From assembly GCA_965645245.1 (NCBI GenBank), contig OZ287088.1:620001-684000 (forward strand): a stretch of DNA of 64,000 bases, read 5' to 3'. The translations under genes and the position numbers were made by a program. The DNA comes from Massalongia carnosa (Eukaryota). Below the pieces are notes generated by a model. That model ran no database searches, had not been told where the DNA came from, and saw only the letters and a list, made by a program, of their open reading frames with translations. This document shows positions 8,201-48,803 of the stretch, one piece after another. Each line of letters begins with the position of its first letter. Positions within the stretch are counted from its first letter, which is position 1.

Positions 8201-9709
8201 CGGTTGAGCATCAACGTTCACTTTTACCTTATCTTGCGCTGTGCGCTTTTACTATTCTCCGACTTGTTCTCTGAACAGCCTCTTAAATGCGCAGATTGCC
8301 GCCTACGTTAAACGAACCCGACCCTACTTTACGATTTTTCATCGACGCAACTTAAATACCTTACCGACAAAGACGATAACCACGCCATTCATATTCGCAT
8401 CATACCTAACGTTCCCTCTGAACAATACTCCTCTAATCGAGACCCACATCATCCTCCGTCCAGAAGAATAGAACGTATAAGGTGTGCCCGATCAACCATT
8501 TATTATTCAACATATATGATATCTGATTCAAGGAACAACATGAACGCTAAATTCGAATAATCGTTCGTGGTCGCGCACACGTAGCAGAGATTTTCTGTTG
8601 GACAAGATAAATGATTATCTTGTAAGAATAGGAGATAAGGGTAAACCGGAGGGGACCATGGTCCTGCAGGAAGTGAAAAATTTTCTCGAAAATCAGAGAA
8701 ATTTCGACAACGACAACGACTATGACAAGACTTCGAAGACTCTAAACGTCACGTTAACAGAAATCCAGAAAAGCCTTGCTCGCATCGAAGGAGCAAAAGC
8801 AGTCACAATAAACTTGGATAACTACGCCGCCGCTGCCACCAGAGGCCAGGACACTCAAGCCCCACCGGTCCCACGTCGCACGAAGCCAACTGTATACTTA
8901 AAGCACACAGAGCCCTCGCCTCAAGAGATTCGAAAGGCCAGGGAAATAACTATCGTCGTCCCGAACACAATAGACAAAGAAAACCTAAAGAACGTGACAA
9001 CAAAAGATCTCGTGGAGATTCTACAACGTGAGACGAAGGTGATTCGGGGATATCACGTCTCATCAGCGGAGATCTCAAGATTCTTACCGAATCTTTAGAG
9101 GCCAAAAAGCTCCTACAAGAGAAACCGGAGTGGGTTCAAATTGTAGCCGAATCAGCCGCGATAACGACACGAACGTAATCTATCAGGGTAAATGGTGTCA
9201 AGGTCGAAAATATCAAAACCGCCAACCAATCTCAGGCTATAGAGTACCTACAGGCCGCTAACGCACGTCTGAACACGAACCTGAAGATCAAGAAAATAGC
9301 CTGGTCCGTCAAAGCTATAAGGGAAAAAAAGACGTATTCTACGCTACATATAGAAGTTTCAACCACCGAAACGGCCAACCGGATCATAGCCGAAGGCCTT
9401 GTGGTCGACTATGAAATCAAAGAATGTGAAAGGTTCACCAAGGGATGTACCATGATGCAATGCTTAAACTATCACAAATACGGTCACATAGGTCGCTCAT
9501 GTCCAAATCCTACCACCTTTGGCCACTTCGCCGGGGGCCATCCCAGCACCGAATGCAACATGGAAACGACGGGTAGATACCGAAGATGTATTGCATGCAG
9601 TAAGAAGGCCATGGAGCCTGGTCCATATCCTGCGGAATCAGGAAATCAGAAAAAAGCAAAGCAGACAAGGCTATCCAAAATCGGGTTCCGATGGATTGCA
9701 AGAACAAAA
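8201..9709 (+). pseudogene. 5' part (leader plus gag-like ORF1) of a third, unrelated Tad-like LINE
   Basis: Broken ORFs 8598-9098 and 9401-9754 carry degenerate zinc knuckles (QCLNYHKYGHIGRSC, GHFAGGHPSTEC, RCIAC). GC is higher than in A/B. Confidence 0.7.
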
Positions 9710-12685
9710 GACACCTATCGAAACACAAGTACCGCAACTTTTGATACTTTATAACTTTCACAGTCAATTGAACATCTCTTTCTCAGTCATTTGAGCTCCT
9801 CCAGAGCAAAAACGGACTCAGATTGAGTGTAGGAGAGCTTAGCAAAGCTCCAGTAGAGATTATCTTCTGGTCGCACGCGACAGACGTGATAAAGCGCGCT
9901 CAAGAAGTTATAAAAAACAACAAATACCAACAATATCACCAAAAATCGCTCTTTTTTCTCACTTTCTTCTGTTCTGTTGTCGCACTACCCTCAATTATTA
10001 CTATAAGTATTATCTACAAAAATTATCTACTGTCGCGATACTGTACAACCACTGTCGCGACGACTAACTTTTTTGAAGTTTATTTCTCATTTAAGGTTAC
10101 GGGAACTTCCGCAAGCACAAATTTTCACAGTATATTTCACGTATAATTTCTGCATATACCATTTTAGGCTTTATCGATCTCTATTGAACGGCCGTCAACA
10201 GATCAGTAAAAAGAAGGGGAAAAACGTCTGGAATAGGATTATACCAAAGATCCTATTTCAGATTAATCAGAATAGGAAGTCTCTTATTATCCTACCTTGA
10301 CTTAGATCTATTTTTATCGCAAAAAAGCAAGAAAAAAAACTTTCATTATTTTCAACTATTGTAGTGTCTGGTAAAGGGTTAAATAAGATTTACTGCCTAA
10401 GCGAGGAACGGTCTATTTTAACCCGATTAGGATTTATTTGACGAGTTATTGTCATATAAATAGGGATAGGAAAGCAAGAGTCGTTAGACCTGTAAATTGG
10501 TATAAATTTCTATTCTGATTAGTACGTCCGGGGAACATCAGAATAAATTATTTGGTGGTGATAAAAGGGATATTGAAAATGCATATCGATTTATTTATTA
10601 AATCATGGTCAATCCGGTACTCCCTAGGACTCGACGAATTATATCGAGAGCCTCCCCGGGAACACCCCTGAGCACTCCTCAAAACCCTCCCCGAATGGAA
10701 TCTCCGGGGCTCTCGTCAGTAGGACTTTCAGAAAAATCGCCTGTACTTGACGAGCCTATGGATCAATCACATGAATATTCGTCCGCCCCGACTACGCCGA
10801 CCCCAAAAGCAACCAAATTCCCATCTGGACAATTTACTACCAATCTACCCATGCTATCGTTAAATTCTAATATAGAATTAAGCCCGCCTATCAAAAGTAA
10901 CAAACGAAAAACATTTGACGAACGAGTAGAGGAAAGCCAAGAAGCAATCAATCGAGCACAATGGATTGGATTACTCAAAACGGCTAAAACCGCGTTATTG
11001 AAGTCATCTGTCTTAGATCAAAATCCAGAAACAGCAATAGTCATTGATAATGTCAATTCCTTATTGACAAAAAAATCAATTAATATAAAAACAACACTAG
11101 AGATGATGAATTGGAAATTGGACAAGGTAATTGATCAGACTAGTAATCGAACCTCAGAAACAACGCGAAAATCGACTCTGGTTCAACAAGTCAATACGAC
11201 TGAAAATCCAAATAAAGTCGTCAACACGAACGCACGATAGGAAACCGCCGGGGTTACGAGTACAAAGGTCAATAACACGCCTCCATCCTGGAGTCAAATG
11301 CTTGGAAAAGCAACTGCGAATTCCGAAAATTGGACCACTGTTTCCAGATCGAAAAATTCGAGTCAAACCTAGAACAAATTCGACAAAACCGACGAATTAA
11401 ATGCAATCAGACTCAGACGACTGATAATTACACCAAAAATTCAAATCGGCGATATCGACTCATTGAAACTTCGAGATCAAATCAACGCGCAATTCAGCAA
11501 CGCGAAGTTAGATATCGTAATCAACACGGTCGAAAAATCGAAAACCGGTCAGAATATCGTTCTCACTACTAGTTCGAAAAACACTGCTGCAGAATTGTTG
11601 GAAAACAAATCTATATAGGAACATATGTTCGATGCACAAAGAATTCGAAAAGACGAATCCTGGTTTAAAGTGATCGCTCATGGAGTAAATATTGCAACGT
11701 TTGACCAAAATATGCAATATATGCAAAATGAAATCTAGAAATTCAACCTTAACATGGAATTATGCGATTTACCCAGATGGCTAGCGCGAGACCGCGAAAA
11801 TAAAGTCAATTCTTCGGTCGTTTTGACTTATAACGATCGAAATCAGGCCTTAAACGCGTTAAAAGGCGTAAATATCGCGGGAAAACACTGTGACACGGAA
11901 ATATTTACTTCCGTTCGTCCGAATACACAATGTATTAATTGTCAAAAATTCGGACACAAGCATTATCAGTGTCGAAAAAAATCAAAATGCAATATTTGTC
12001 CACAAAATCATGAAACACGTAATCATGAATGCATAACATGCAAATCGAAAACTGCGTGTTCACACGTTATTGTGAAATGTGCAAACTGCAATAAAAATCA
12101 TCAATCAAATGATGAACATTGTGAAATATTTACTGCATTAAATCCACGAAAATCGGCTGACGAACTATCCGCCTTATAATGGCAGGAAAGCATTCGTTGG
12201 CAAATATAGAAAATACTCACAATGTCAAATTTATTCAACACAACTGTGGAAGGTCAACGAATGCAATGACTTCTTGTTTGGAATATGCTTTATGAAATTA
12301 AATTGATATTGTTATGTTTCAGGAACCATGGACACGAGATCAAAAAACAATATCACATCTTTCATTTACATGCATTATGCCAAAAATAGTGACTTATCGC
12401 TCGAGAGTAGCTATATTTGTCACAAAATGCAATCCCAAACTGCAATGCACGCCTAGAATGGATCTTATTGACGATTCCGATATGTAAATTATTGAAATTA
12501 CAATTGATGAAGTTCGAAAAGTGCAGATTTTCAATATTTATAACGAAAAAAGTCAAAATGATCGAGAAACATACACGATCGATCGACTTTTAATCAAATA
12601 TCAACCTACATCAACTAATTAATTCGTCATTTGTGGAGATTTCAATGCAAATCATAACTGGTGAAATTCAAAAATTCAACACGCA
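9710..12685 (+). mobile_element. Family A 5' half: leader, ORF1 with nonsense codons (10605-12179), start of ORF2
   Basis: Collinear with 15906-17134 plus 23917-25700. TAATG junction at 12177-12181. Cut by a B tail at 12686. Confidence 0.93.
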
Positions 12686-15600
12686 TTTTTATTTTATTTA
12701 TTCATTAAGTGTATTCAACCTAAGGTTATGACACTAAACTATTTTAAGATATGGTTTTATTTTACAAATAAATCAATCAACCCTTTATAACCCAACTATG
12801 TATTGTCAATATTGCCCCGTTTTTACTCCGTGTTAGTAACAACCTTTAGTAATCGAAATATCGATTTTACAATTTGTTTTTGTAAAGCTCGTAAATATTC
12901 CAGCATAAATCATTTCTAATTTTACTGTTCGATCTCTCCCCAATCTCCCGTTACGATATTTTAGTCATCGAGCTGACCTAAAATCCATTTTCTAGTCGCG
13001 ATTTTGTTATCAACAATAAATTTAATCAAAATATTATTTCCGATCCTAGTATTAAACAACATTTTTAAAGTAATTGTGGTATCGATATTTTGTTTCATGT
13101 TTAGGATTTCATTTGAATAATGTATGCAATTCATCAATAAGTATTCTGACGTTCGTTGCAGCGCCCTGTGCATTTTGACGAATTATAATCTTTCAATCGG
13201 TGCAGATATGATCGAAAATACCGTGTCCGAAATTCATTTGCATAATAGTCGCAAATATTAATTTCTAACAATTATTCGACAGATAATAAAAACTCGATTT
13301 GCCCGGCTGCATTTCGAATTTCTCATAGTATTTGCCTTTTCACTTGCATTGTTGCCATTGATTCGCCCATGTGGCTAACATATTTCGATTTATTTGACCC
13401 TATACATAATAAAATGTTATTATCAGAAGAGTCGACTAAGATTCGACTATGTTCCGCTTTTGCTGCTTTATCTGCAATATCATTTTCGACGATTTTCGAA
13501 TGACTAGGAATCCATTGTAGAACCACCTAATAATCGTTTCCGAATAAGAATTTCGAGATTTTTCGAATTTGTTTTGCGTAAGTATGATTTGTCAAGTTCT
13601 GAATTTCGTTTATCGCGTTTATGCTATCGGAAAAAATCCAAATCGTTTTTTCCAAATTGAAGAGAATATTCGCAATTGTCAATTTGTATGCCTATTTTAT
13701 TGCTTGTAGTATCGCATACAGTTCAGCGTTTTTAACGCTTGACTTTTTGTTTAATTTCCAGCTTTTCGAAATCGTATGATGTTTGAGGAGACAATCTTTT
13801 TCGATAAAACGATTGAAGTTATCGGTGAAATTGTTCCAATTTCGCGTAATTGGTGCAAATGTGACAGCGGAAGTTGAAAACTCGGTTTTTGATCCATCGG
13901 TATAGAGTAACATTTGCGATTTATCGGCGTTTATTGATTGAATTTTTGATAAAGTCGAATAATAACTTGACTTTGCTGTTTCTTTTGATCTTTCGATTTG
14001 GAACTTGATTTTACAAGACGGCTTCCATAGTTTGATGAAATTATTTACTGATACGAATTCATAAGTTTTGTGAAATCTATCCGAAACGGAATTAAGAATA
14101 CAGATAAGCTGACTAGGATGAGGTTTACTCGATTTTTTCTCGTCTTCGTTCCATTCAGCATATCTGTTGTTCCATAAACTAGTGTCAAAACCGATGTTTT
14201 CTAATTTCACCGAGTAGGTACTGGGAATTCTTTGACAAATAGGATTATTTTCGGCAATCTTCAATAATAGAATTGCGTATTTTTGATTTTTCATCAACAA
14301 TCGTAGCTTGGCTGGTAAATTATGCGATTCAATTTCCATCACCTGAACAGGCGTGGTTTTGAATGTACCTAAAATATTTCGAATCATTCGATTTTGCAGA
14401 TTCTGAAATAGCTTTTCATATTTCTTTTGACAGTTATACAAGATTTCTGAGCCATAGTATGAAATAGGAATAATGCATGACAAATAGAGCTGTCTGCATG
14501 CAGTTGGCTTTAGTCCCCATTCAGACTTCATCAAATTTTGAATTGCGAAAAACGATCGATTTGCAGAAGCAATTCGCGTTTCGAGGTGTTTTTCGTAATT
14601 TAGTTTTCGGTCTAACCAGACTCCTAACCATTTGACAGAATTTTTCGGTTCTAGTATTGTCCCGTTTGGTAATTGCACTTTGTCTTTTGATTCATTTCTT
14701 GACTTTTCGAAGTGAATCATCTCAGATTTGTTGTAATCAAATTTGACATTATTCGTTGCGGCCCAATCAAAAGATGTTTTGACGATAATTTCGATTTCTT
14801 TGCAATTCTGTTTGGCAGTATTATTTTGGACATATATTGCAACATTGTCTATAAAGCTAGGTGTATGAGCATTGAATATCATTCGTATTTTCGGGAATAA
14901 GTAACGCATATAAATCAGAAATAGAATTGGCGAAATTGGTGAATCTTAAGGAATTCCAGATTCGATATAGTACGTTTTGCTTTTGTGTTCATCGAATATC
15001 AAATTGATCGATCGTTTTGTCATAAAACTCTTGACCCATTGAATAACTATGCGAGATAAATGCAGCTTTTTCATGAAATTTAGCAATTGATTAATCGAAA
15101 CAAAGTCAAATTCTTCTTTGACATCGAGTAATAGACATGATAAACGTTTTTGTTTCGGTTTGCGATTTCGATATCATGAACGACGTTCATTACCGCATCG
15201 ATTGCAGAATGATTTTTGCGTCCGCCCATTTGTTCGGTATCTAACAAGCTCGAATTTTCGCCGAGGTAGGCTAGTCGATTAGCAACTATTTTCTCCGCAA
15301 TTTTACCAAGACAATTCAGTAAGGTAATAATTCGATATGATTTTGGCAGCGAGTAGTCTGGTTTATTATGTTTTTTTAAAACTGCACCGAGTCCTGTTCG
15401 CCAACATAACGGGTGATAACCGATTTGTATAAATTTAGAATAAATAGTAAAAAACACGTTTTTCAATGGTTGAAACGATTTTTGAATTATTGTGAAATTG
15501 ATTGCATCAGGTCCACATGATTTCTTTGGATTAAACAAACTAGTCGCATTTTGCATTTCATTTTAGGTTAAATTCGGCCAATTGTTGTCATTTTCGCTGT

Positions 15601-15905
15601 CTTGATTCGTTAAATCTTCAATATTATCATCCGTTAACGGGATTTTTGTTTACATTGCTGACACAAACGTATCGCATTTGTGATCGAATTGAACATTTAA
15701 CTTATTTTCATATTGAATAGGTGGTATTTTTTCGAACATGCGCGGTTTAGTGTATTTATAAGCTGTAAATACGTCTTTATTCGCTGCGTTTTCGAGGAAA
15801 GCCAACCAAGTTTGCTGTTTCGCTTTTCAAATTGCATGAAAGTACTCGATTCGACTATGTCTAAATGTTTGATGACCAAAATAGGACGGATTATTCCATT
15901 CTCGA
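12686..15905 (-). mobile_element. Family B 3' half; its 5' part is now at 35392-39149
   Basis: T-rich tail at 12686, ORFs 13692-14909 and 15080-15556, ending at TSD tattccattctcga (15892-15905). Confidence 0.92.
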
Positions 15906-16822
15906 ACAGCTCTCACACACCAAAGACCACCTATCGAAACACAAGTACCGCAACTTTTGATACTCTAAAACTTTCACAGTCAATTGAACATCTCTTTCTC
16001 AGTCATTTGAGCTCCTCCAGAGCAAAAACGGACTCAGATTGAGTGTAGGAGAGCTCTAGCAAAGCTCCAGCAGAGATTTTCTGTTGGTCGCACGCGACAG
16101 ACGTGATAAAGCGCGCTCAAGAAGTTATAAAAAACAACAAATACCAACAATATCACCAAAAATCGCTCTTTTTTCTCACTTTCTTCTGTTCTGTTGTCGC
16201 ATGACCCTCAATTATTACTACAAGAATTATCTACAAAAAATATCTACTGTCGCGGTACTGTACAACAACTGTCGCGACGACCAACTTTTTTGAAGTTCAT
16301 TTCTCATTTAAGGTTACGGGAACTTCCGCAAGCTCAAATATTCACAGTATATTTCACGTATAATTTCTGCATATACCATTTTAGGCTTTATCGATCTCCA
16401 TTGAACGGCCGGTCAACAGATCACTGAAAAGAAGGGGAAAAACGTCTGGAATAGGATTATACCAAAGATCCTATTTCAGATTAATCAGAATAGGAAGTCT
16501 CTTATTATCTTACCTTGCCTTAGATCTATTTTTATCGCAAAAAAGCAAAAAAAAAACCTTTCATTATTTTCAACTATTGTAGTGTCTGGTAAAGGGTTAA
16601 ATAAGATTTACTGCCTAAGCGAGGAACGGTCTATTTTAACCCGATTAGGATTTATTTGACGAGTTATTGTCATATAAATAGGGATAGGAAAGCAAGAGTC
16701 GTTAGACCTGTAAATTGGTGTAAATTTCTATTCTGATTAGTACGTCCGGGGAACATTAGAATAAATTATTTGGTGGTGATAAAAGGGATATTGAAAAGGC
16801 ATATCGATTTATTTATTAAATC
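15906..16822 (+). promoter_or_regulatory. Family A ~900-nt structured 5' leader (internal promoter / translational element candidate)
   Basis: Second copy at 9710-10604. Several hairpins covary with the family B leader. Confidence 0.7.
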
Positions 16823-19800
16823 ATGTTCAATCCGGTACTCCCTAGGACTCGACGAATTATATCGAGAGCCTCCCCGGGAACACCCCTGAGCACTCCTCAA
16901 AACCCTCCCCGAATGGAATCTCCGGGGCTCTCGTCAGTAGGACTTATAGAAAAATCGCCTGTACTTGACGAGCCTATGGATCAATCACATGAATATTCGT
17001 CCGCCCCGACTACGCCGACGCCAAAAGCAACCAAATTCCAATCTGGACAATTTACTACCAATCTACCCATGCCATCGTTAAATTCTAATATAGAATTAAG
17101 CCCGCCCATCAAACGTAACAAACGAAAAACATTCTTTTTTTTTATTTTTTATTTTTTTATTTATTCATTAAGTGTATTCAACCTAAGGTTATGACACTAA
17201 ACTATTTTAAGATATGGTTTTATTTTACAAATAAATCAACCCTTTATAACCCAACTATCTATCGTCAATATTGCCCCGTTTTTACTCCGTGTTAGTAACA
17301 ACCTTTAGTAATCGAAATATCGATTTTACAATTTGTTTTTGTAAAGCTCGTAAATATTCCAGCATAAATCATTTCTAATTTTACTATTCGATCTCTTCCC
17401 AACCTCCCGTTTCGATATTTTCGTCATTGAGCTGACCTAGCATCCATTTTCTAGTCGCGATTTTGTTATCAACAATAAATTTAATCAAAATATTATTTCC
17501 GATCCTAGTATTAAACAACATTTTTAAAGTAATTGTGGTATCAATATTTTGTTTCATGTTTAGGATTTCATTTGAATAATGTATGCAATTCATCAATAAG
17601 TGTTCTGGCGTTTGACGTTCGTTGCAGCGCCCTGTGCATTTTGACGAATTATAATCTTTCAATCGGTGCAGATATGATCGAAAATAACCGTGTCCGAATT
17701 TCATTTGCATAATAGTCGCAATTATCAATTTCGAACAATTATTCGACAGATAATAAAAACTCGATTTGTCCGGCTGCATTTCGAATTTTTCATAGTATTT
17801 GCCTTTTGACTTGCATTGTTGCCATTGATTCGCCCATGTGGCTAACATATTTCGATTTATTTGACCCTTTACATAATCAAATGTTATTATCGAAGACTCG
17901 ACTGGATTCGACTATGTCCCGCTTTTGCTGCTTTATCTGCAATTTCATTTTCGACGATTTTCGAATGACTAGGAATCCATTGTAGAACCACCTGATAATT
18001 GTTTCCGAATAAGCATTTCGAGAATTTTCGAATTTGTTTTGCGTAAGTATGATTTGTCAAGTTCTGAATTTCGTTTATCGCGTTTATGCTATCGGAAAAA
18101 ATCCAAATCGTTTTTTCCAAATTGAAGAGAATATTCGCAATTGTCAATTTGTATGCCCATTTTATTGCTTGTAGTATCGCATAGAGTTCAGCGTTTTTAA
18201 CGCTTGACTGTTTGTTTAATTTCCAGCTTTTCGAAATCGTATGATGTTTGAGGAGACAATCTTTTTCGATAAAACGATTGAAGTTATCGGTGAAATTGTT
18301 CCAATTTCGCATAATTGGTGCAAATGTGACAGCGGAAGTTGAAAACTCGGTTTTTGATCCATCGGTATAGAGTAAAATTCGCGATTTATCGGCGTTTATT
18401 GATTGGATTTTTGATAAAGTCGAATAATAACTTGACTTTGCTGTTTCTTTGGATCTTTCGATTTGGAACTTGATTTTACAAGACGGCTTCCATGGTTTGA
18501 TGAAATTATTTACTGATTCGAATTCATCAGTTTTGTGAACTATATCCGAAACGGAATAAAGAATACGGATAAGCTGACTAGGATGAGGTTTACTCGATTT
18601 TTTCTCGTCTTCGTTCCATTCAGCATATCTGTTGTTCCATAAACTAGTGTCAAAACCGATGTTTTCGAATTTCACAGAATAGGTACTGGGAATTCTTTGA
18701 CAAATAGGATTATTTTCGGCAATCTTCAATAATCGAATTGCGTATTTTTGATTTTTCATCAACAATCGTAGCTTGGCTGGTAAAATATGCGATTCAATTT
18801 CCATCTCCTGAACAAGCGTGGTTTTGAATGTGCCTAAAATCTTTCGAATCATTCGATTTTGCAGATTCTGAAATAGCTTTTCATATTTCTTTTGACCGTT
18901 ATACCAGATTTCTGAGCCATAGTCCGAAATAGGAATAATACATGACAGATAGAGCTGTCTGCATGCAGTTGGCTTTAGTCCCCATTCAGACTTCATCAAA
19001 TTTTGAATTGCGAAAAACGATCGATTTGCAGAAGCAATTCGCGTTTCGAGGTGTTTTTTGTAATTTAGTTTTCGGTCTAACCAGACTCCTAACCATTTGA
19101 CAGAATTTTTCGGTTCTAGTATTGTCCCGTTTGGTAATTGCACTTTGTCTTTTGATGCATTTCTTGACTTTTCGAAGTGAATCAACTCAGATTTGTCGTC
19201 ATCAAATTTGACATTATTCGTTGCGGCCCAATCAAAAGCTGTTTTGACGATAATTTCGATTTCTTTGCAATTCTGTGTGGCAGTTTATTTTCGACATATA
19301 TTGCAACATCGTCTATAAAGCTAGGTGAATGAGCATTGAATTTCATTCGTATTTTCGGAAATAAGTAACGAATATAAATCAGAAATAGAATTGGCGAAAT
19401 TGGTGAACCTTGTGGAATTCCAGATTCGATATAGTACGTTTTGCTTTTGTGTTCATCGAATATCAAATTGATCGATCGTTTTGTCATAAAATGCTTGACC
19501 CATTGAATAACTATGCGAGATAAATGCAGCTTTTTCATGACATTTAGCAATTGATTAATCGAAACAATGTCAAATCCTCCTTTGACATCGAGTAATAGAC
19601 ATGATAAAACGTTTTTGTTTCGGTTTGCGATTTCGATATCATGAACGACGTTTATTACCGCATCGATTGCAGAATGATTTTTCCGTCCGCCCATTTGTTC
19701 GGTATCTAACAAGCTCGAATTTTCGCCGAGGTAGGCTAGTCGATTAGCAATTTTTTCTCCGCAATTTTACCAAGACAATTCAGTAATGTAATAATTCGAT

Positions 19801-22800
19801 ATGATTTTGGCAGCGAGTAGTCTGGTTTATTAGGTTTTTTTAAAACAGCACCGAGTCCTGTTCGCCAACATAACGGGTGATAACCGATTTGTATAAACTT
19901 AGAATAAATAGTAAAAAACACGTTTTTCAATGGTTGAAACGATTTTTGAATTATTGTGAAATTGATTGCATCAGGTCCACATGATTTCTTTGGATTAAAC
20001 AAACTAATCGCATTTTGCAATTCATTTTCGGTTAAATTCGGCCAATTGTTGTCATTTTCGCTGTCTTGATTCGTTAAATCTTCAATATTATCATCCGTGA
20101 ACGGGTTTTTTGTGTACATTGCTGACACAAACGCATCGCATTTGTGATCGAATTGAACATTTAACTTATTTTCATATTGAATAGGTGGTATTTTTTCGAA
20201 CATGCGCGGTTTAGTGTATTTATAAGCTGTAAATACGTCTTTATTCGCTGCGTTTTCGAGGAAAGCCAACCAAGTTTGCTGTTTCGCTTTTCGAATTGCA
20301 TGAAAGTACTCGATTCGACTATGTCTAAATGATTGATGACTAAAATAGGACGGATTATTCTTCCATTCTCGACGATGTCTACACATGATTTTTCGAAGTC
20401 CGGATAAATCTTGCGACCACCAATTTTCGATTTTGCGCATATTTTTGTCTTCGGAATAAACATTTCAGCCGCGTTTTTGATAACGTTTTGCAAATATAAC
20501 GCTGATTCATCAAATTGATAATTGTTCAATAGACTTTGTATTTGGGACTCGTAGTTTACTGCATTTTCGTCTAGAAACTTCGCGAATTTATCCCAATCGG
20601 CTTTATTGCAGTTGTATTTATTCGATAATGCGGTTGCGTGTGACGTCAAGTTCTTGAAAGACGCGATAAGTTCAAATCGAATAACTTCAACGATCTGAAC
20701 CCGTGACTGCGTTTTCATCGATTGACCAATTTGTAATTGCGTTTTCGATTTTAGAATTTGCAAATGTTAAATCAATAATAGATGAAGAGTTTCCTGAATG
20801 AGCAAAAAATGTATATAGATCAGGCCTATTTATCAAACTACAATTGTTTAATTTTAACCATTTGACTAGATTTTCTGATCGAATTGCATTTAAAATCTTC
20901 GAATTCCACCAGCTATGATGTGCATTGAAATCTCCACATATGACAAATTGATCAGTTGATATAGGTTGATATTTAACTAAAAGTCGATCGATTGTATATG
21001 TTTCTCGATCGTTTAGACTTTTTTCATTGTAAAGGTTAAAGATCTGCACTTTTCGAACTTCATCAATTGTAATTTCGATAATTTGCAGATCAGTATCGTT
21101 TATAAGATCCGTTCTAGGCGTGCATTGTAATTTTGGATTGCATTTTGGAACCGAATATAGCTACTCTCGGCCGATAAGTCGCTATTTTCGGCATAATACA
21201 TGTGAATGACGGATGGGAAATTGTTTTTTGATCTCGCGTCCATGGTTCCTGAAATAAAACAATATCAACACGATTTAATACTGCATATTCCAGACACTAA
21301 ATCATTGCATTCGTTGACTTTGCACAATTATGTTGAATAAATTTGACATTTTGTGTATTTTCGATATTTGTCAACGAATGTTGTCCCGCCATTAACCAAG
21401 CATTAATTCATCATTCGATTTTCTAGGATTTAGCGAGATAAACATTTCGCAACCTATATCGTTCGATTGATAATTTTTGTTGCAATTGACGCATTTCAGA
21501 ATTACATGTGCGCATGCGATTTTAGACTTGCATGTTGTGCATTCATGATTATGCGTTTCATGACTTTGTGCGCATATATTGCATTTTGCCGGACTTTTGC
21601 ATTGATAATGCTTATGTCCAAATTTCTGACAATTAATACATTGCGTGTTTGGACGAACGGAAGCAAATATTTCCGTGTCACAATGTCTACCCGCGATATT
21701 CACGCCTCTTAACGCGTTTGACGCTTGATTTTGATTATTGAAAGTCAAAACTACCGACGACGTGACTTTGTTTTGACGATCCCGAGCAAGCCATCTTGGT
21801 AAATCGCATAGTTGCATATTCGAATTGTATTTTTCGATTTCGGTTTGCAAATATTGCATGTTATTATCGAATAACGAGATATTTACTCCGTGTGCTATGA
21901 CTTTAAACCAGGATTCGTCTTTTCGAATTCTTTGTGATTCGAAAATGTGTTCCCATGAAGATTTATTTTTCAACAATTCTTCGGCATTGTTGTCAGGGCT
22001 AGTGGTGAGAACGATATTCTGACCGGTTTTGGACTTTTCAACAGTATTGACGATGATGTTTAAATTTGCGTTTTTTAATAGCGCGTTAATTTGATCACGC
22101 AACTTCATAGAGTCGATTTGAGCGTCAGGATTTTTCGGTGAAATCACGAGTCGTCTGGCCTTGATTGCATCAAATCGATCGACTTTGTTCGAATTATGAT
22201 TCGAACTTTTCCTTTGAATAGTAGTCCAATTTCCGGAGTTTTCGGTTGCTTTTCCAAGCATTTGACTCCATGTACCGGTTGTGCTAACATTGTTACCAGA
22301 GACCCCGGTGGCTCCTTTGCGAATGGTCTGATTTTCGATAATTGAATTTTCGTTCAATTTAACAACAGGTTTTTGGATTTTTGGACCATTCTGTAGTGGA
22401 GTCGTTTGTTGTTGTGACGTTTTTGAGGAAAGATGACTAGTTTGATCAAGTACTATGCCCATTTTATAGTTAATCATATCTAAGGATGTTTGTAAATTGA
22501 TTGATTTTTTCGAAATCAACGAATTAACGTTGTCAATTACGATAGCAGTTTGTAGATTTTGGTCCAGTACAAATGATTGCAATAATGCTTTTTTGGCCGA
22601 CTTTAGAAGCTCAATTGAATTTGCCCGATTGATCGCTTCTTGGCTATCTCTCGAATGTTCGTCAAATGTGCGTCTTTTATTTCGTTTGATTGGTGGGCTT
22701 GATCCAATGTTAAGTTCAATGAAGGCATCGGCAAGATAGTGGAAAATGGACCCGATGGGAATTTCGTTGCCTTTGGTGTCGGTGTTGACGGGGCTGATGC

Positions 22801-25193
22801 ATATTCGGGAGTTTGATCCATAGGTTCAAGACGGGGAGAGCTCCCTATCAACGCCACCGGAGATGGTCCGGGGGAGTGTCGGGGGGGGGCCGGGTAAGGG
22901 GTCGATAGGGGGGCGGGACCGGCTGGGGGTGGTGTCCTTGGTATATTCCGGCGGTTCATTACCGCGTTAAACATGGATTTATAAATAAATCGATGTTGCC
23001 TTTGCTATATCCCCTTTATCGCCACCAAATAATTTATTCTGACGTTCCCCGGACGTAATAGTCAGAATAGAGAGTTTTTACACCGATTTACTGGTCTAAA
23101 GACTCTTGCTTTCCAAACCCTATTTATTTGACAATAACAAGTCAAATAAATCCTAGTCGAGTTAAAATAGACCGTTCCTCGCTTAGGCAATAGATCTTAT
23201 TTAACTCTTTACCTTGACACTACGATATATGGAATATAATAAGAATTTTACGATCGAACAGAAAAATTTTTTTTTTTTTTTTAAAAAATGTTTTTGATCC
23301 AGAAATAAAAATCAAGTACAATGAGAGAGAGGAGACTTCCTATTCTGGTTAGCCTGAAACAGGGCCTTTGGTTTAACCCTATTTCAGACGTTTTTCCCCT
23401 TCGTTTCAGCAGATTGTTGGTCGGCAGTTCAACGAAAATCGAAAAAACCCAAAATGGAATAGTGTATACGGTACCGGTAACCTTAAATTTCAAATGAACA
23501 CCAAGAAGTTTTGTTGTCTCGAGAACAGGTTGTACAGTTACGCGACAGTGATGATATTTTGTAGATAATTTTTGTGATAATAGATGAGATCTATGCGACA
23601 ATTAAACCGAAGAAATATCGAAAATCGAGCGATTTTTGACGTTGTTGTTGGTGTTTTTGTGTTTTGTAGATTTTTTGGACGCGCTTTTTGGTGAAGGGGC
23701 GGACAGACCGCGAGGAAAACTCTGCAGGAGCAGTTAAAGAGCTCTCCTGTACCCAATTCTGATGGGTTTAAGCTTCTGGTAGGCTCAAATGAATGAGAAG
23801 AATGAGGAGAATAAGTTGAGAAAGTTTCAGTATATCAAAATATAGGGTACCGATGTTTTGGGGGTTGGCTTATTGCTGATGAGTGATCATGAATGCACTC
23901 GACACTGATAATGCTTAACGAAAAACATTCGACGAACGAGTAGAGGAAAGCCAAGAAGCAATCAATCGAGCACAATCGATTGGATTACTCAAAACGGCTA
24001 AAACCGCGTTATTGAAGTCATTTGTCTTAAATCAAAATCCAGAAACAGCAATAGTCATTGATAATGTCAATTCCTTATTGACAAAAAAATCAATTAATAT
24101 CAAAACAACACTAGACATGATGAATTGGAAATTGGACAAGGTAATTGATCAGACTAGTAATCGAACCTCAGAAACAACGCGAAAATCGACTCGGGTTCAA
24201 CAAGTCAATATGACTGAAAATCCAAATAAAGTCGTCAACACGAACGCACGAAAGGAAACCGCCGGGGTTACGAGTACAAAGGTCAATAACACGCCTCCAT
24301 CCTGGAGTCAAATGCTTGGAAAAGCAACTGCGAATTCCGAAAATTGGACCACTGTTTCCAGATCGAAAAGTTCGAGTCAAACCTCGAACAAACTCGACAA
24401 AACCGACGAATTAAATGCAATCAAACTCAGACGACTGATAATTACACCAAAAATTCAAATCGGCGATATCGACTCATTGAAACTTCGAGATCAAATCAAC
24501 GCGCAATTCAGCAACCCGAAGTTAGATATCGTAATCAACACGGTCGAAAAATCGAAAACCGGTCAGAATGTCGTTCTCACTACTAGTTCGAAAAACACTG
24601 CTGCAGAATTGTTGGAAAACAAATCTATATGGGAACATATGTTCGATGCACAAAGAATTCGAAAAGACGAATCCTGGTTTAAAGTGATCGCACATGGAGT
24701 AAATATTGCAACGTTTGATAAAAATATGCAATTTTTGCAAAATGAAATCCAGAAATTCAACCTTAACATGGAATTGTGCGATTTACCCAGATGGCTAGCG
24801 CGAGATCGCGAAAATAAAGTCAATTCTTCGGTCGTTTTGACTTTTAACGATCGAAATCAGGCCTTAAACGCGTTAAAAGGCGTAAATATCGCGGGAAAAC
24901 ACTGTGACACGGAAATATTTACTTCCGTTCGTCCGAATACACAATGTATTAATTGTCAAAAATTCGGACACAAGCATTATCAGTGTCGAAACAAATCAAA
25001 ATGCAATATTTGTGCACAAAATCATGAAACACGTAATCATGAATGCATAACATGCAAATCGAAAACTGCGTGTGCACACGTTGTTGTGAAATGTGCAAAC
25101 TGCAATAAAAATCATCAATCAAATAATGAACATTGTGAAATGTTTACTGCATTAAATCCACGAAAATCGGCTGACGAATTATCCGCCTTATAA
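16823..25193 (+). CDS. Family A ORF1 (gag-like, CCHC knuckles), split by the B insertion; 524 aa once rejoined
   Basis: 16823-17134 (104 codons) joins in frame to 23931-25193. Knuckles CINCQKFGHKHYQC, CNICAQNHETRNHEC and CANCNKNHQSNNEHC. Confidence 0.9.
21392..22974 (-). pseudogene. Family B ORF1 (gag-like, CCHC knuckles), one frameshift near 22710
   Basis: ORFs 22603-22974 and 21392-22582. The equivalent N-terminal region is in frame in the copy at 45571-46284. Confidence 0.9.
22975..23871 (-). promoter_or_regulatory. Family B ~900-nt AUG-free structured 5' leader
   Basis: No CAT on the + strand over the interval by manual scan. Second copy at 46285-47171. Confidence 0.7.
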
Positions 25194-26221
25194 TGGCAGG
25201 ACAGCATTCGTTGGCAAATATAGAAAATACTCACAATGTCAAATTTATTCAACACAACTGTGGAAGGTCAACGAATGCAATCATTTCGTGTTTGGAATAT
25301 GCTTTATCAAATCAAATTGATATTGTTTTGTTTCAGGAACCATGGACACGAGATCAAAAAACAATATCACATCCGTCATTTACATGCATTATGCCGAAAA
25401 TAGCAACTTATCGCTCGAGAGTAGCTATATTTGTCACAAAATGCAATCCCAAACTGCAATGCACGCCTAGAACGGATCTTATTGACGATTCCGATATGCA
25501 AATTATTGAAATTACAATTGATGAATTTCGAAAAGTGCAGATTTTCAATATTTATAACGGAAAAAGTCAAAATGATCGAGAAACATACACGATCGATCGA
25601 CTTTTAATCAAATATCTACCTACATCAACTAATCAATTCATCATATGTGGAGATTTCAATGCAAATCATAACTGGTGGAATTCGAAAATTCAAAATGCAA
25701 TTCGATCAGAAAATTTAGTCAAATGGTTGAAAATAAACAAATGTAGTTTGATAAACACACCTGATTTATGCACATTCTACGCCCATTCTGGAAGTTCATC
25801 ATCTGTTATTGATTTAAAATTTGCAAATTCCAAAATCGAAAATGCAATTACAAACTGGGCAATCGATGAAAACGCAGTCACAGGTTCAGATCATGAAGTC
25901 ATCCGATTTGAACTAATCGCATCTTTCAAGAATTTGACGTCACATGCAACCGCATTATCGAATAAATACAATTGTAATAAAGCCGATTGGAATAAATTCG
26001 CGAAGTTTCTAGACGAAAATTCAATCAACTACGAATCAAAAGTTCAAAGTTTATTGAATAATCATCAATTCGACGAATCAGCGATACATTTGCAAAAAAT
26101 TATCAAAAACGCGGCTGAAATGTTTATTCCGAAAACAAAAATATGTGCAAAATCGAAAAATTGGTGGTCGCAAGATTTAACCGAACTTCGAAAAATCATG
26201 TGCAGGCATCGTCGAGAATAG
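25193..26221 (+). CDS. Family A ORF2 N-terminus (APE endonuclease), premature stop
   Basis: Motifs IQHN, FQEPW, FNIYN, GDFNANH, IDL, GSDH. The start overlaps the ORF1 stop (TAATG). Confidence 0.9.
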   Translation: MAGQHSLANIENTHNVKFIQHNCGRSTNAIISCLEYALSNQIDIVLFQEPWTRDQKTISHPSFTCIMPKIATYRSRVAIFVTKCNPKLQCTPRTDLIDDSDMQIIEITIDEFRKVQIFNIYNGKSQNDRETYTIDRLLIKYLPTSTNQFIICGDFNANHNWWNSKIQNAIRSENLVKWLKINKCSLINTPDLCTFYAHSGSSSSVIDLKFANSKIENAITNWAIDENAVTGSDHEVIRFELIASFKNLTSHATALSNKYNCNKADWNKFAKFLDENSINYESKVQSLLNNHQFDESAIHLQKIIKNAAEMFIPKTKICAKSKNWWSQDLTELRKIMCRHRRE

Positions 26222-26602
26222 AAGAATTATCCGTCCGATTTTAGTCATCGGACGTTTAAACATAGTCGAATTGAGTATTTTCATGCAATTCGAAAAGCAA
26301 AACAACAAACCTGGTTGACTTTTCTAGAAAATGCAGCGAATAAAGACGTGTTTACCGCGTATAAATATACTAAACCGCGCATATTCGAAAAAATACCGCC
26401 GATTCTACATGAAAATAAGCTTAATGTTCAGTTTGATGACAAATGCGATGCGTTTGTGTCAGCAATGTACACAAAAAACCCATTTATAGACGATAATGTC
26501 GAAGATTTACCAAATCAAGACAGCGTAAATGATGATAATTGGCCAGATTTGACCGAAAACGAGCTGCAAAATGCGATTAATTTATTTAATCCGAAGAAAG
26601 CA

Positions 26603-29600
26603 TGATCTATATACATTTTTTATTCATTCAGGAAACTCTTCATCTATTATTTATTTAATATTTGCAAATTCTAAAATCGAAAACGCAATTACAAATTGGT
26701 CAATCGATGAAAACGCAGTCACGGGTTCATTTCATGAAGTTATTCGATTTGAACTTAACGCGTCTTTCAAGCTTGACGTCACACGCAACCGCATTTATCG
26801 AATAAATACAACTGCAATAAAGCCGATTGGGATAAATTCGCAAAGTTTCTAGACGAAAATACAATAAACTACGAGTCTCAAATACAAAGTCTATTGAACA
26901 ATTATCAATTTGACGAATCAGCGTTATATTTTTAAAACGTTATCAAAAACGCGGCTGAAATGTTTATTCCGAATACAAAAATATGCGCAAAATCGAAAAA
27001 TTGGTGGTCGCAAGATTTAACCGGACTTCGAGAAATCATGTGTAGACATCGTCGAGAAAGGAAGAATAATCCGTCCTATTTTAGTCATCAAACATTTAGA
27101 CATAGTCGAATCGAGTACTTTCATGCAGTTCGAAAAGCGAAACAGCAAACTTGATTGGTTTTACTCGAAAACGCAGCAAATAAAGACGTATTTACAGCTT
27201 ATAAATACACTAAACCGCGCATGTTCGAAAAAATACTACCTATTCAATATGAAAATAAGTTAAATGTTCAATTCGATCACAAATACGATGCGTTTGTGTC
27301 AGCAATGTACACAAAAAACCCGTTCGCGGACGATAATATTGAAAATTTATCGAATCAAGACAGAGAAAATGACAACAATTGGGCGAATTTAACCGAAAAT
27401 GAATGCAAAATGCGATTAGTTTGTTTAATCCAAAGAAATCATGTGGGCCTGATGCAATCAATTTCACAATAATTCAAAAATCGTTTCAACCATTGAAAAA
27501 CGTGTTTTTTACTATTTATTCTAAATTTATACAAATCGGTTATTACCCGTTATGCTGGCGAACAGGACTCGGTGCAGTTTTAAAAAAACCTAATAAACCA
27601 GAGTACTCGCTGCCAAAATCATATCGAATTATTACCTTACTGAATTGTCTTTGTAAAATTGCGGAGAAAATAGTTGCTAATCGACTTGCCTACCTCGGCG
27701 AAAATTCGAGCTTGTTAGATACCGAACAAATGGGCGGACACAAAAATCATTCTGCAATCGATGCGGTAACGAACGTCGTTCATGATATCGAAATCGCAAA
27801 CCGAAACAAAAACGTTTTATCGTGTCTATTACTCGATGTCAAAGGAGCATTTGACTTTGTTTCGATTAATCAATTGCTAAATATCATGAAAAAGCGGCAT
27901 TTATCTCGCATAGTTATTCAATGGGTCAAGTATTTTATGACAAAACGATCGATCAATTTGATATTCTATAAACACAAAAGCAAAACGTACTATATCGAAT
28001 CTGGAATTCCACAAGTTTCACCCATTTCGCCAATTCTATTTCTGATTTATATTCGTTACTTATTTCCGAAAATACGAATAAAATTCAATGCTCATTTACC
28101 TAGCTTTATAGACGATGTTGCAATATATATCGAAAATAAAACTGCCAAACAGAATTGCAAACGAAAATTCAATCAACTACGAATCAAAAGTTCAAAGTTT
28201 ATTGAATAATCATCAATTCGACGAATCAGCGATACATTTGCAAAAAATTATCAAAAACGCGGCTGAAATGTTTATTCCGAAAACAAAAATATGTGCAAAA
28301 TCGAAAAATTGGTGGTCGCAAGATTTAACCGAACTTCGAAAAATCATGTGCAGGCATCGTCGAGAATGGAAGAATTATCCGTCCGATTTTAGTCATCGGA
28401 CGTTTAAACATAGTCGAATTGAGTATTTTCATGCAATTCGAAAAGCAAAACAACAAACCTGGTTGACTTTTCTAGAAAATGCAGCGAATAAAGACGTGTT
28501 TACCGCGTATAAATATACTAAACCGCGCATATTCGAAAAAATACCGCCGATTCTACATGAAAATAAGCTTAATGTTCAGTTTGATGACAAATGCGATGCG
28601 TTTGTGTCAGCAATGTACACAAAAAACCCATTTATAGACGATAATGTCGAAGATTTACCAAATCAAGACAGCGAAAATGATGATAATTGGCCAGATTTGA
28701 CCGAAAACGAGCTGCAAAATGCGATTAATTTATTTAATCCGAAGAAAGCATGTGGACCTGATGCAATCAATTTTACAATTGTTCAAAAATCGTTTCAATC
28801 GTTGAAAAACGTGTTTTTCATGATTTATTCGAAATTCATTCGAATCGGTTATCACCCGTTATGCTGGCGGACAGGACTCGGTGCAGTTCTGAAAAAACCT
28901 AATAAATCAGACTATTCGCTACCAAAATCATATCGAATTATCACATTACTAAATTGTCTTGGTAAAATTGCTGAGAAAATCGTTGCAAATCGACTAGCCT
29001 ACTTCGGCGAAAATTCGAATTTACTAGATATCAAACAGATGGGCGGACACAAAAATCATTCTGCAATTGACGCAGTAATGAACGTCGTTCATGATATCGA
29101 AATTGCGAATCGAAATAAAAGCGTTTTATCATGTTTATTACTCGATGTCAAAGGCGCATTTGACTTTGTCTCGATTAATCAACTGCTAAATGTCATGAAA
29201 AAGCTGAAATTATCTCGCATAATAATTCAATGGGTCAAGCATTTCATGACAAAACGATCGATCAATTTGATATTCGATGAAAACAAAAGCAAAACATATT
29301 ATGTCGAATCAGGAATTCCACAAGGTTCACCAATCTCGCCTATTCTATTTCTGATTTACATTCGTCACTTTTTTCCGAAAATACGAATGAAATTTAATGC
29401 ACATTCTCCCAGTTTTATTGACGATGTTGCAATATATGTCGAAAATAAAACTGCAAAAAAAAATTGCAAAGAAATCGAAATCATAGTCAAAACAGCTTTT
29501 GATTGGGCCGCATCGAATAATGTCAAATTCGATGACGATAAATCCGAGCTGATTCACTTCGAAAAGACAAGAAATGTATCGAAAGACACATTGGAATTAC

Positions 29601-31580
29601 CAAACGGGACAGTACTAGAACCGAAAAATGTAGTCAAATGGTTGGGCGTCTGGTTAGACCGGAAACTGAATTTCAAAAAATACGTCGAAACGCGAATCTC
29701 TTCTGCGAATCGATCGTTTTTTGCAATTCAGAATTTGATGAAATCCGAATGGGGTCTGAAACCGACCGCATGCAGACAGCTCTATTTGTCATGCATTATT
29801 CCTATTTCGGACTATGGCTCAGAAATTTGGTATAATGGTCAAAAGAAATATGAAAAACTATTTCAGAACCTACAAAATCGAATGATTCGAAAGATTTTAG
29901 TAACTTTCAAAACCACACCTATTCAGGCGATGGAAATTGAATCACATGTTTTACCAGTTAAACTTCGATTATTAATGAAAAATCAAAAATACGCAATTCG
30001 ATTATTGAAGATTGCCGAAAATAACCCTATTTGTCAAAGAATTCCAAATACATATTCGATAAAATTCGAAAACATCGGTTTTGACACTAGTTTATGGAAC
30101 AACAAATATGCCGAATGGAACGAAGACGAAAAACAAACAAATAAACGACATCCTAGTCAGCTCATTCGCGTTCTTCATTCCGTTTCCGACATAGTTCACA
30201 AAACTGATGAGTTTGAACAATCAAATCATTTTATTAAACCTTGGAAATCGCCGTGCAAAATCGAATTTCAAATCGAAAATACAAAGGAATCTGCTAAATC
30301 AAGTTATTATTCGACCTTATCCAAAATTCAATCAATGAACTCCGATAAATCCCGAGTTTTACTTTATACGGATGGATCAAAAATCGAATTTGCAACGTCT
30401 GCAGTCACATTTGCGCCAATTATGAGGAATTGGAGTAGTATTATCAATAATTTTGATCGATTTATCGAAAAAGATTGTCTGATCAAGTATCATACGATTT
30501 CGAAAAGCTGGAAATTAAGCAAACAGTCAAGCATTAAAAATGCTGAACTGCATGCAATTTTACAAGCAATGAAATGGGTCTATAAATTGTCTAATACTAA
30601 TATTTTATCGAACTTGGAAAAAACGATTTGGATTTTTTCTGATAGTATAAACGCGATAAACGAAATTCAGAACCTGAAAAATCATATTTTTGCAAGACAA
30701 ATTCGAGAGCTCGCAAAACGCTTATTTGAAAGCAATTATCAGGTGATTTTGCAATGGGTTCCGAGTCATTCGAATATTACCGAAAACGAAATTGCAGACA
30801 AAATAGCAAAGACGGGCCATAATCAAATCCTAGTCGAGTCCTCGGCTATAACATTTGATTATGTAAAAGATCAAATAAATCAAAATATGCTAACCACATG
30901 GACGAATCAATGGCAACAATGCAAATCAAAAGGCAAATACTACGAGAAATTCGAAATGAAACCTGGCATATCGAGATTTTATTATTTATCAAACAACTGT
31001 TCCAAATTGATATTTGCTACTATTATGCAATTAAAATTCGGACACGGCTATTTTCGATCATATTTACATCGATTGAAAGATTATAATTCGTCAAAATGCT
31101 CAAATCGATGCAATCAACGAAAAACGCCAGAACACTTGTTATTGAATTGCATTCACTATTTCGATGAAATTCAAAACATGAAACAAACCATCGATACTAC
31201 GATCAACTTGAATATGTTGTTTGATACAAAAATCGGAAATGACATTTTGATTAAATTCATTGTCAATAACAAAATCGCGACTAGAAAATGGATACTAGGT
31301 CAGCTTGATGACGATATTTTCGAAACTGGAGGTTGGGGAGAGATCGAACAGTAAAATCAGAAACGATTTATGCTGAAACAGTTACGAACTTACAAAGATA
31401 AATTGTAAAATCGATAATTTTCGATTACTATAGGTTGTTACTAACACGGAGTAAAAATGGGGAAAAATTGACAATACATAGATGGGTTATAAAGGGTTGA
31501 TTTATTCGTAATATAGAAACATATCCTAAAATAGTTTAGTGTCATAACCTTAGGTTGAATACACTTAATGAATAAATAAA
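26603..31580. repeat. Left arm of a ~5 kb near-perfect inverted duplication (partner 39157-44134)
   Basis: Paired ORF coordinates sum to 70737 (28115/42622, 31354/39383, 27403/43334, 26852/43885). Translations are identical except one D/N. Confidence 0.95.
28115..31354 (+). CDS. Uninterrupted RT-RNase H-CCHC ORF (1079 aa) of a 5'-truncated family A copy, lacking the endonuclease
   Basis: Motifs SYRIITLL, LLDVKGAFD, GIPQGSPISP, FIDD, YTDGS and C-terminal CSNRC…HLLLNC. The first ~16 codons come from the host B copy. Confidence 0.93.
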   Translation: MLQYISKIKLPNRIANENSINYESKVQSLLNNHQFDESAIHLQKIIKNAAEMFIPKTKICAKSKNWWSQDLTELRKIMCRHRREWKNYPSDFSHRTFKHSRIEYFHAIRKAKQQTWLTFLENAANKDVFTAYKYTKPRIFEKIPPILHENKLNVQFDDKCDAFVSAMYTKNPFIDDNVEDLPNQDSENDDNWPDLTENELQNAINLFNPKKACGPDAINFTIVQKSFQSLKNVFFMIYSKFIRIGYHPLCWRTGLGAVLKKPNKSDYSLPKSYRIITLLNCLGKIAEKIVANRLAYFGENSNLLDIKQMGGHKNHSAIDAVMNVVHDIEIANRNKSVLSCLLLDVKGAFDFVSINQLLNVMKKLKLSRIIIQWVKHFMTKRSINLIFDENKSKTYYVESGIPQGSPISPILFLIYIRHFFPKIRMKFNAHSPSFIDDVAIYVENKTAKKNCKEIEIIVKTAFDWAASNNVKFDDDKSELIHFEKTRNVSKDTLELPNGTVLEPKNVVKWLGVWLDRKLNFKKYVETRISSANRSFFAIQNLMKSEWGLKPTACRQLYLSCIIPISDYGSEIWYNGQKKYEKLFQNLQNRMIRKILVTFKTTPIQAMEIESHVLPVKLRLLMKNQKYAIRLLKIAENNPICQRIPNTYSIKFENIGFDTSLWNNKYAEWNEDEKQTNKRHPSQLIRVLHSVSDIVHKTDEFEQSNHFIKPWKSPCKIEFQIENTKESAKSSYYSTLSKIQSMNSDKSRVLLYTDGSKIEFATSAVTFAPIMRNWSSIINNFDRFIEKDCLIKYHTISKSWKLSKQSSIKNAELHAILQAMKWVYKLSNTNILSNLEKTIWIFSDSINAINEIQNLKNHIFARQIRELAKRLFESNYQVILQWVPSHSNITENEIADKIAKTGHNQILVESSAITFDYVKDQINQNMLTTWTNQWQQCKSKGKYYEKFEMKPGISRFYYLSNNCSKLIFATIMQLKFGHGYFRSYLHRLKDYNSSKCSNRCNQRKTPEHLLLNCIHYFDEIQNMKQTIDTTINLNMLFDTKIGNDILIKFIVNNKIATRKWILGQLDDDIFETGGWGEIEQ

Positions 31581-48458: not shown

Positions 48459-48628
48459 TGTGACGAAGCGAGATAGTGAATAGATTTCTACCATTGCGCC
48501 ACCTGTCCTCCCGACTAAAAGGCACAATACTTAGTCCGTAGACCAAGCTCTATTCTACTATAACTGGGACTCCTGCTATGTTCGCTGTAGGTCCTGCCGT
48601 CCGCACCACGCTTGGTCGAACCGTTACT
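48459..48628. mobile_element. 170-bp solo LTR inside the Fot1 transposase
   Basis: Ends tgtgacg…cgttact, flanked by cactg/cagtg. Removal restores the frame FNVCS-VDKVDFL. Confidence 0.7.
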
Positions 48629-48803
48629 CAGTGGACAAGGTAGATTTTCTGAAGATCATTCAAAAAGCAAGTAAAGAAGCAATCAACACAAAAAACGTGC
48701 TGACTGCATGGAGAGCAACCGGATTAGTACCATACAATCCGTCAACAGTTCTTCAAAAACTCACTAATAAACAATCGGTGTTGCGAAAGACTGATACCAT
48801 CAT

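Follow-up and report, generated by a model that had tools for sequence, protein, structure and literature searches.

The 5' leader of the LINE shown here raises the question of whether a non-coding segment directly upstream of an ORF1 start codon acts as a structured RNA and, if so, for what. A preliminary description had proposed a conserved multi-hairpin RNA whose stems are kept by compensatory changes, possibly an IRES, a packaging signal or a ribozyme. The window in which the leader lies (the whole stretch of 64,000 nt that was analysed) is a nested transposon cluster. Pfam searches of the window detected endonuclease, reverse transcriptase and RNase H domains of LINE bodies on both strands, with pogo/Tc5, MULE, copia and gypsy fragments beside them, and no host gene was seen anywhere in it. 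In the right part (47375-61034), both strands carry fragments of pogo/Tc5 transposase; a FAR1-containing MULE transposase, a copia-type integrase and reverse transcriptase, and another reverse transcriptase fragment also lie there. Comparing the window with itself, we assigned the leader to the 5' end of a single LINE family, of which two lineages, A and B, are present. ORF2 of this LINE has the Pfam domain order Exo_endo_phos_2, RVT_1, RNase_H and is preceded by a separate ORF1; the host element is an APE-type non-LTR retrotransposon with RNase H, as in the I/Tad-like group, and a Gag-like ORF1. Its Atlas neighbours are a mixture of arthropod and basidiomycete clusters, and the earlier label of a fungal Tad-like LINE is a putative one.

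One B copy, B1, is a full-length element of 6783 bp (17134-23916, minus strand) inserted into an A-type element. It has the hallmarks of non-LTR retrotransposition: a 13-bp target-site duplication (17121-17133 and 23917-23929), an A-rich 3' tail from 17134 onward (minus strand) and no LTR. Between the duplication and the 5' end common to B1 and the second B copy there are a further ~45 bases (23872-23916). The insertion interrupts the A2 element at 17133, and A2 resumes at 23917, beyond the inserted B1; A2 is not a short fragment of its own. ORF1 (21395-22825, minus strand) represents a rare family with no Pfam domain; searches up to an E value of 5 returned no Pfam family and no zf-CCHC or zinc-knuckle match. 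Its C-terminal end carries Cys-His motifs, one of which is CX2CX4HX4C, and further Cys-rich motifs. Elsewhere in the window, an inverted repeat of LINE body sequence with 4988-bp arms (26600-31587 and 39150-44137; 100% complementary) reflects either duplication in the very recent past or an error of assembly.

The window contains exactly four copies of the leader, listed here with the start codon of the A2 copy:

15919-16822, plus strand: A2 leader, ~904 nt, beginning at the 5' end of the element and ending directly before the ORF1 AUG (16823)
9704-10604, plus strand: A1 leader, full 5' leader; ORF1 AUG at 10605
22975-23871, minus strand: B1 leader, full 5' leader, 897 nt; ORF1 AUG at 22974
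46285-47171, minus strand: B2 leader, full 5' leader; the copy is decayed, having a deletion of 10 nt and two stem breaks of its own
16823-16825, plus strand: ORF1 start codon of A2; in the ancestral state inferred for each lineage, no AUG precedes it on the transcript

Each of two invariant loop motifs is found at exactly four places in the window, where 0.02 and 0.17 occurrences would be expected. A1, A2 and contigs of two sequencing runs (X9/X10) have different flanks and the same 5' end, and B1 and B2 likewise share a common 5' end; we therefore take the leader to be ~900 nt long. The preliminary description had aligned the last ~380 nt before the AUG. Its four aligned copies and every stem and coordinate check out in letters and positions, and the homology over those 380 nt stands, but the limit does not: A and B can be aligned across all ~900 nt of the leader, starting at the 5' end of the element. 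Sister copies are nearly identical (392/401 positions between A1 and A2 over the last 400 nt; 404/437 between B1 and B2), and the evidence thus amounts to a single comparison between two lineages.

Conservation between the lineages is concentrated in two islands, one around a hairpin that we call stem 1 and the other a block adjoining the start codon:

16578-16822, plus strand: conserved block, in which A2 and B1 agree at 216/250 columns (86%) and which includes stems 2-4 and the invariant loops
10360-10604, plus strand: the block in A1
23224-22975, minus strand: the block in B1
46524-46285, minus strand: the block in B2

In the same comparison of A2 with B1, 67 of the 80 columns of the stem 1 island are identical (84%) and only 44 of 105 (42%) in the spacer between the islands; at the start of ORF1, A1 and B1 share 43-50% identity. 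The conservation of the block is clearly above chance, and it extends to the loops (13-29 nt), which are invariant, and not to the stems alone. Measured from the common 5' end, stem 1 lies at ~520 nt and the block at ~660 nt, so that the islands span 520-900 nt and adjoin the AUG. The block has stops in all three frames, and the single stretch that is open in both lineages changes mostly non-synonymously, which excluded a uORF or other peptide coding. The two islands are therefore either constrained or exchanged between lineages. The earlier claim of a selectively conserved, non-coding leader region is thus upheld by the identity of the block relative to the spacer and to four-fold degenerate sites and by its stops in all frames. 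At those sites, compared over 20690-22825 (minus strand) and 23919-26218 (plus strand), A and B agree at 46/94 positions in ORF1 (49%) and at 33/41 in the endonuclease region (80%). Because identity in the endonuclease region is far above that in ORF1, we regard the elements as mosaics, a pattern that suggests that A and B have exchanged 5' modules. Three conserved positions carry the hexamer AATAGG in sense orientation (16450, 16489 and 16677, and the same places in A1, B1 and B2), with ~0.2 occurrences expected; the sites fall in the 5' arm of stem 1, in an upstream repeat and just after stem 3.

Stem 1 is the element of the leader that behaves most clearly as RNA. Its positions in the four copies are as follows:

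16444-16458 paired with 16467-16481, plus strand: stem 1 in A2, a 15-bp hairpin with an 8-nt loop
10226-10263, plus strand: stem 1 in A1
23389-23352, minus strand: stem 1 in B1
46689-46652, minus strand: stem 1 in B2

The stem was placed at 16445-16480 in the preliminary description; it is present there, and at 15 bp it is two pairs longer than was stated. On the sense strand it folds at -19.4 kcal/mol in A2 and -22.9 kcal/mol in B1 (z of -6.2 and -5.9), with 0/200 dinucleotide shuffles as good, versus -11.8 and -11.1 kcal/mol on the antisense strand (z of -2.7 and -1.7). Six substitutions separate the lineages within the stem, comprising one double change and four one-sided switches between Watson-Crick and G.U pairs. 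All six preserve pairing on the sense strand, while the G.U switches produce A.C mismatches on the opposite strand. In a sliding scan of 59 segments over 3 kb of the A1/B1/B2 alignment, those covering stem 1 were the most extreme (z of -4.6 and -9.0; structure conservation index, SCI, of 0.83-0.87). The decayed B2 copy has copy-specific breaks in stems 1 and 2. The stem 1 hairpin is clearly above chance, and in its energies, z-scores and strand bias it behaves like a sense-strand RNA hairpin, as the structured-RNA reading had it.

The remaining hairpins and one predicted long-range pairing lie in or around the block:

16594-16601 paired with 16635-16642, plus strand: stem 2, outer 8 bp, with an inner 5 bp (16604-16608 with 16628-16632) and an apical 3 bp
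16650-16660 paired with 16669-16679, plus strand: stem 3, 11 bp in B, 10 bp and a U.U mismatch in both A copies
16729-16737 paired with 16755-16763, plus strand: stem 4, 9 bp, with a loop of 17 nt that is invariant over its last 14 nt
16497-16503 paired with 16783-16789, plus strand: long-range helix predicted by RNAalifold, 7 bp including 2 G.U pairs, which would enclose stems 2-4

Stem 2, which encloses an invariant 17-nt stretch (16613-16629), folds at -15.1 kcal/mol (z of -2.6; 6/200 shuffles as good) with an antisense z of -2.25, and carries a double change from G-C to A-U as well as a one-sided change from U.G to C-G. For stem 3 (-9.4 kcal/mol), the z-score is -4.8 on the sense strand (0/200) and -5.1 on the antisense strand; it shows no covariation, and its sole change between A and B breaks a pair in A. 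In the A lineage, stem 3 also contains a TATA-like octamer. We considered this octamer as a downstream promoter and dropped it, since it is weakened in B and since the depletion of AUG described below and the common 5' ends point to full-length transcripts. Stem 4 has one double change (U-A to C-G) and a G.U pair in A2, where it folds at -6.2 kcal/mol (z of -0.5; 52/200 shuffles as good). In the global minimum free energy (MFE) structure of the A copies, its 5' arm pairs instead with the upstream repeat (16483-16495). This alternative, and a second one that pairs the 3' arm of stem 1 with 16488-16495, were dropped because their extensions are mismatched in B. An invariant 9-bp complementarity also joins the tail of stem 4 (16759-16767) to bases just before the AUG (16806-16814); it overlaps the 3' arm of stem 4, so that the two pairings would compete, and it shows no variation. 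The long-range helix carries a fourth compensatory pair (U-A in A, C-G in B) and is a weak prediction, coming from consensus folding alone. Stems 2-4 consist only of Watson-Crick pairs and consequently fold equally well on either strand. Scan segments over them gave z-scores of -2.1 to -3.4, compared with -4.7, -4.2 and -3.3 for coding segments of similar identity. Of the proposed multi-hairpin RNA, then, stem 1 holds strongly, whereas stems 2-4 do no better than coding sequence of equal identity; by their predicted folds, they are plausible as RNA hairpins.

We also examined the four copies jointly. RNAalifold recovered stems 1-4 together with the inner helix of stem 2 and the long-range helix, in a consensus fold of 74 pairs with 4 double changes, 12 one-sided changes and 3 copy-specific breaks, the breaks each belonging to single decayed copies. 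The consensus energy was -68.8 kcal/mol versus -41.0 +/- 5.2 kcal/mol in 200 column shuffles, none of which was as low, and the SCI was 0.66 versus 0.50 in the shuffles. Three compensatory pairs had been reported earlier, one each in stem 1 (A-U to G-C), stem 2 (G-C to A-U) and stem 4 (U-A to C-G), and all three are present as claimed. As proof of structure, however, they fail: at least 4 double changes arose under RNAalifold in 70 of the 200 column-shuffled alignments, which puts the compensatory count at chance level, and two independent lineages are too few for any valid covariation statistic. A separate set of controls on the compensatory pairs is circular because the structure was derived from the same four sequences. 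In a cross-lineage test, hairpins of at least 8 bp were defined in one lineage and scored on the other. It gave 3 double changes versus 0.8 expected (P of 0.036 and 0.037), and when double changes were scored jointly with few breaks, the sense strand reached P values of 0.009 and 0.003 and the antisense strand 0.014 and 0.14. Tests of the MFE structure over the whole region were marginal (P of 0.01-0.2), with the antisense strand about as good. The stability of the block is not unusual in A (z of -0.73), and in B the antisense strand (z of -4.38) surpasses the sense strand (z of -2.65).

Relatives of the element were sought in several collections. Among 5.8 billion proteins, ORF1 had 19 relatives at an E value of at most 0.001, most of them, with 44-94% identity, on megabase contigs of a single source and a few more near 30%. 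An ORF1 alignment compared with viral contigs gave 145 pattern matches, none of which was confirmed. The 17-nt loop motif had no matches in viral contigs, a gapped pattern of the two motifs had none in metagenome contigs, and a 20-mer and a 24-mer had none in prokaryote genome contigs, the 24-mer having none in viral contigs either. We rejected as chance 33 metagenome loci containing the 17-mer, in each of which blastn aligned only 17-22 nt and most of which have 43-73% GC. Part of the stretch occurs in 12 sequencing-run entries, which carry nine organism codes and, for one run, the label lichen metagenome, with no RNA run among the 12. Of four runs compared, X9 contains a complete A-like copy that differs by 42 letters and 5 gaps over 9712-10700, run X11 contains B-like pieces, and the remaining matches are short fragments. 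Since close copies occur in runs of nine organism codes and in the lichen metagenome, more leader lineages exist.

Taken overall, the RNA-structure idea is likely. Our favored reading, which we hold tentatively and with somewhat less than even confidence, is that the leader islands form an undescribed cis-acting RNA module, most likely a recognition platform for the element's own proteins. The sequences show the conservation, the capacity to form hairpins, the sense bias of stem 1 and the depletion of AUG; that stems 2-4 act at the RNA level and that the module binds protein, we infer. The Cys-His motifs at the end of ORF1 speak for a protein-recognition platform in RNP assembly, although ORF1 has no Pfam match. 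The leader would be transcribed from the element's first base, remain joined to ORF1 and be scanned from the cap, while selection would keep stem 1 as a sense-strand hairpin together with the 250-nt block adjoining the AUG. That block could form three weaker hairpins with invariant purine-rich loops, perhaps closed by the long-range helix, and the module would nucleate an ORF1p/ORF2p RNP on its own mRNA in the manner of a retroviral packaging signal or the R2 5' RNA. Sequence-specific recognition is suggested by the block loops, which are invariant and purine-rich. One invariant loop holds a self-complementary tetranucleotide that could make a loop-loop contact. A narrower proposal, which we judge improbable, is that the module is a packaging-signal-like RNA whose loops are bound specifically by the zinc-knuckle ORF1 protein, giving a sequence-specific cis-preference in a LINE. 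The cis-preference of LINE proteins is usually explained by co-translational binding and not by a sequence-specific signal. A protein-recognised structured leader module in an I/Tad-type element would, if true, be a tractable counter-example to co-translational cis-preference.

A doubtful alternative, though one with several observations in its favor, places the module at the DNA level, as transcription-factor sites of a LINE internal pol II promoter or enhancer, and takes the stems for copies of a motif in either orientation. Internal promoter activity is present in most LINE 5' UTRs that have been characterised, according to a review (PMC2881922). Invariance of the loops and not of the stems alone, the strand-indifferent Watson-Crick pairing of stems 2-4 and the TATA-like octamer in stem 3 of A would all suit such a module, and the threefold AATAGG hexamer fits DNA-level protein binding. 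Against it, the changes in stem 1 are wobble-compatible on the sense strand only, with an antisense hairpin ~8-12 kcal/mol weaker, and four paired positions have changed on both sides with complementarity kept. The islands also lie 520-900 nt downstream of the conserved 5' end and adjoin the AUG, and all three conserved occurrences of the hexamer are in sense orientation. Should the islands nevertheless be promoter DNA, the finding would be an ordinary one; on present evidence the module is a well-defined candidate.

It is fairly unlikely that the module consists of translation-control hairpins, which would tune 43S scanning or start recognition at the ORF1 AUG instead of binding protein. Its place directly upstream of the first and only AUG would suit such a role, as would its hairpin energies of -6 to -23 kcal/mol, a range passable by scanning ribosomes. 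A purely steric effect, however, needs no invariant loop sequences; the data here do not separate tuning of this kind from protein binding.

Quite improbable, in our view, is the absence of any dedicated function, with patchy recombination or gene conversion between A and B having left younger segments in which A/U-rich chance hairpins appear. The mosaic nature of the elements, visible in the contrast between four-fold sites of the endonuclease region and of ORF1, accords with this explanation, as does a compensatory count not above that of shuffles; promoter replacement is also frequent in LINEs, as the review states (PMC2881922). Yet four breakpoints would have to frame the two islands exactly around a spacer of 42% identity, and z-scores of about -6 for stem 1 in both lineages, with 6/6 changes compatible with pairing, would be left unexplained.

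The distribution of ATG in the leader has a bearing on mechanism. B1 has no ATG in its 897 nt (9.1 expected from dinucleotide shuffles), A2 has 1 (10.1 expected), A1 has 1 and B2 has 2, the expectation across the four leaders being 9.1-10.1. Counts as low as those observed arose in none of 2000 shuffles for each of A1, A2 and B1 and in one for B2 (1/2000; 0.0005). ATG is the most depleted of the 64 trinucleotides in the leader, and CAT, its antisense equivalent, is not depleted. The few stray ATGs lie at differing places in sister copies, and active ancestors were therefore probably AUG-free in the leader. By the established scanning model of initiation, depletion confined to the sense strand implies that the full leader is probably scanned from the cap while still attached to ORF1. 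For LINEs transcribed by pol II, a review considers cap scanning the most likely mode of translation of the first ORF (PMC2881922). From sequence alone, a 900-nt leader free of AUG is a clear sign that a non-mammalian LINE relies on cap-dependent scanning.

The same depletion weighs on the two other functions that had been put forward. An IRES upstream of ORF1 is very unlikely, since it would remove selection against upstream AUGs: the long leader with a structured region adjoining the AUG, and the IRESs reported upstream of both mouse L1 ORFs (PMC3592465), speak for one, whereas sense-strand AUG depletion over all ~900 nt implies scanning from the 5' end, as an IRES would not need. This argument about scanning-independent initiation is an indirect one, the depletion being what scanning would be expected to leave. 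A comparison with Rfam, named earlier as a check, was run with cmscan at E values up to 10 over 15000-17500 and 22900-23950; no ribozyme and no R2 family was found in either lineage, and the best matches were unrelated snoRNA and sRNA models (E of 0.18-9.4), none common to A and B. A self-cleaving ribozyme (HDV-like, hammerhead, twister or new) is barely credible: such ribozymes do exist at the 5' termini of LINEs, namely in R2, L1Tc and schistosome elements (PMC12203849), but no Rfam ribozyme model matches, the module sits 520-900 nt inside the RNA and not at the 5' terminus where an HDV-like ribozyme would be expected, and cleavage in or before it would release the upstream part of the leader from a selection against AUG that is evident there.

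How the module, read as a protein-recognised RNA, relates to known systems can be set out for four of them. It is an undescribed example in a known kind of element; a full-text search of a limited literature collection returned no conserved leader structure in I/Tad-type or fungal LINEs. HDV-like and twister ribozymes occur at the 5' ends of R2, L1Tc and schistosome non-LTR elements (PMC12203849), and the leader shares with these elements a structured RNA, here predicted, in the 5' region of a non-LTR retrotransposon. It differs in matching no ribozyme model, in having its module internal to the leader and in apparently keeping the upstream leader on the mRNA. The human L1 5' UTR, at ~900 nt, contains an internal promoter, and its ORF1 is translated by cap-dependent scanning (PMC2881922). 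Both leaders are long and scanned, scanning being deduced here from AUG depletion, and they have no sequence relation. We know of no L1 equivalent of the conserved hairpin module.

Retroviral leaders contain multi-hairpin packaging signals that are bound by a zinc-knuckle nucleocapsid. Like them, the LINE module has predicted hairpins with purine-rich loops before a gag-like ORF, and its ORF1 has candidate Cys-His knuckle motifs. Unlike them, it belongs to another class of element, its ORF1 has a single canonical CX2CX4HX4C and no Pfam zf-CCHC match, and dimerisation or selective packaging of its RNA would be hypothetical. In R2, a protein-bound structured 5' RNA adjoins the ORF start and controls a later step of integration (PMC12203849). 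R2 is a single-ORF, rDNA-specific element, whereas the host element here is of the APE type, with two ORFs and its own leader; the two RNAs have no sequence or covariance-model similarity, the R2 5' RNA is a protein-binding pseudoknot, whereas hairpins are what is predicted for the leader, and binding by the element's proteins is putative here. As with the R2 5' RNA, a conserved segment of predicted structure ends at the base before the AUG, and the resemblance between the two would be a functional one only.
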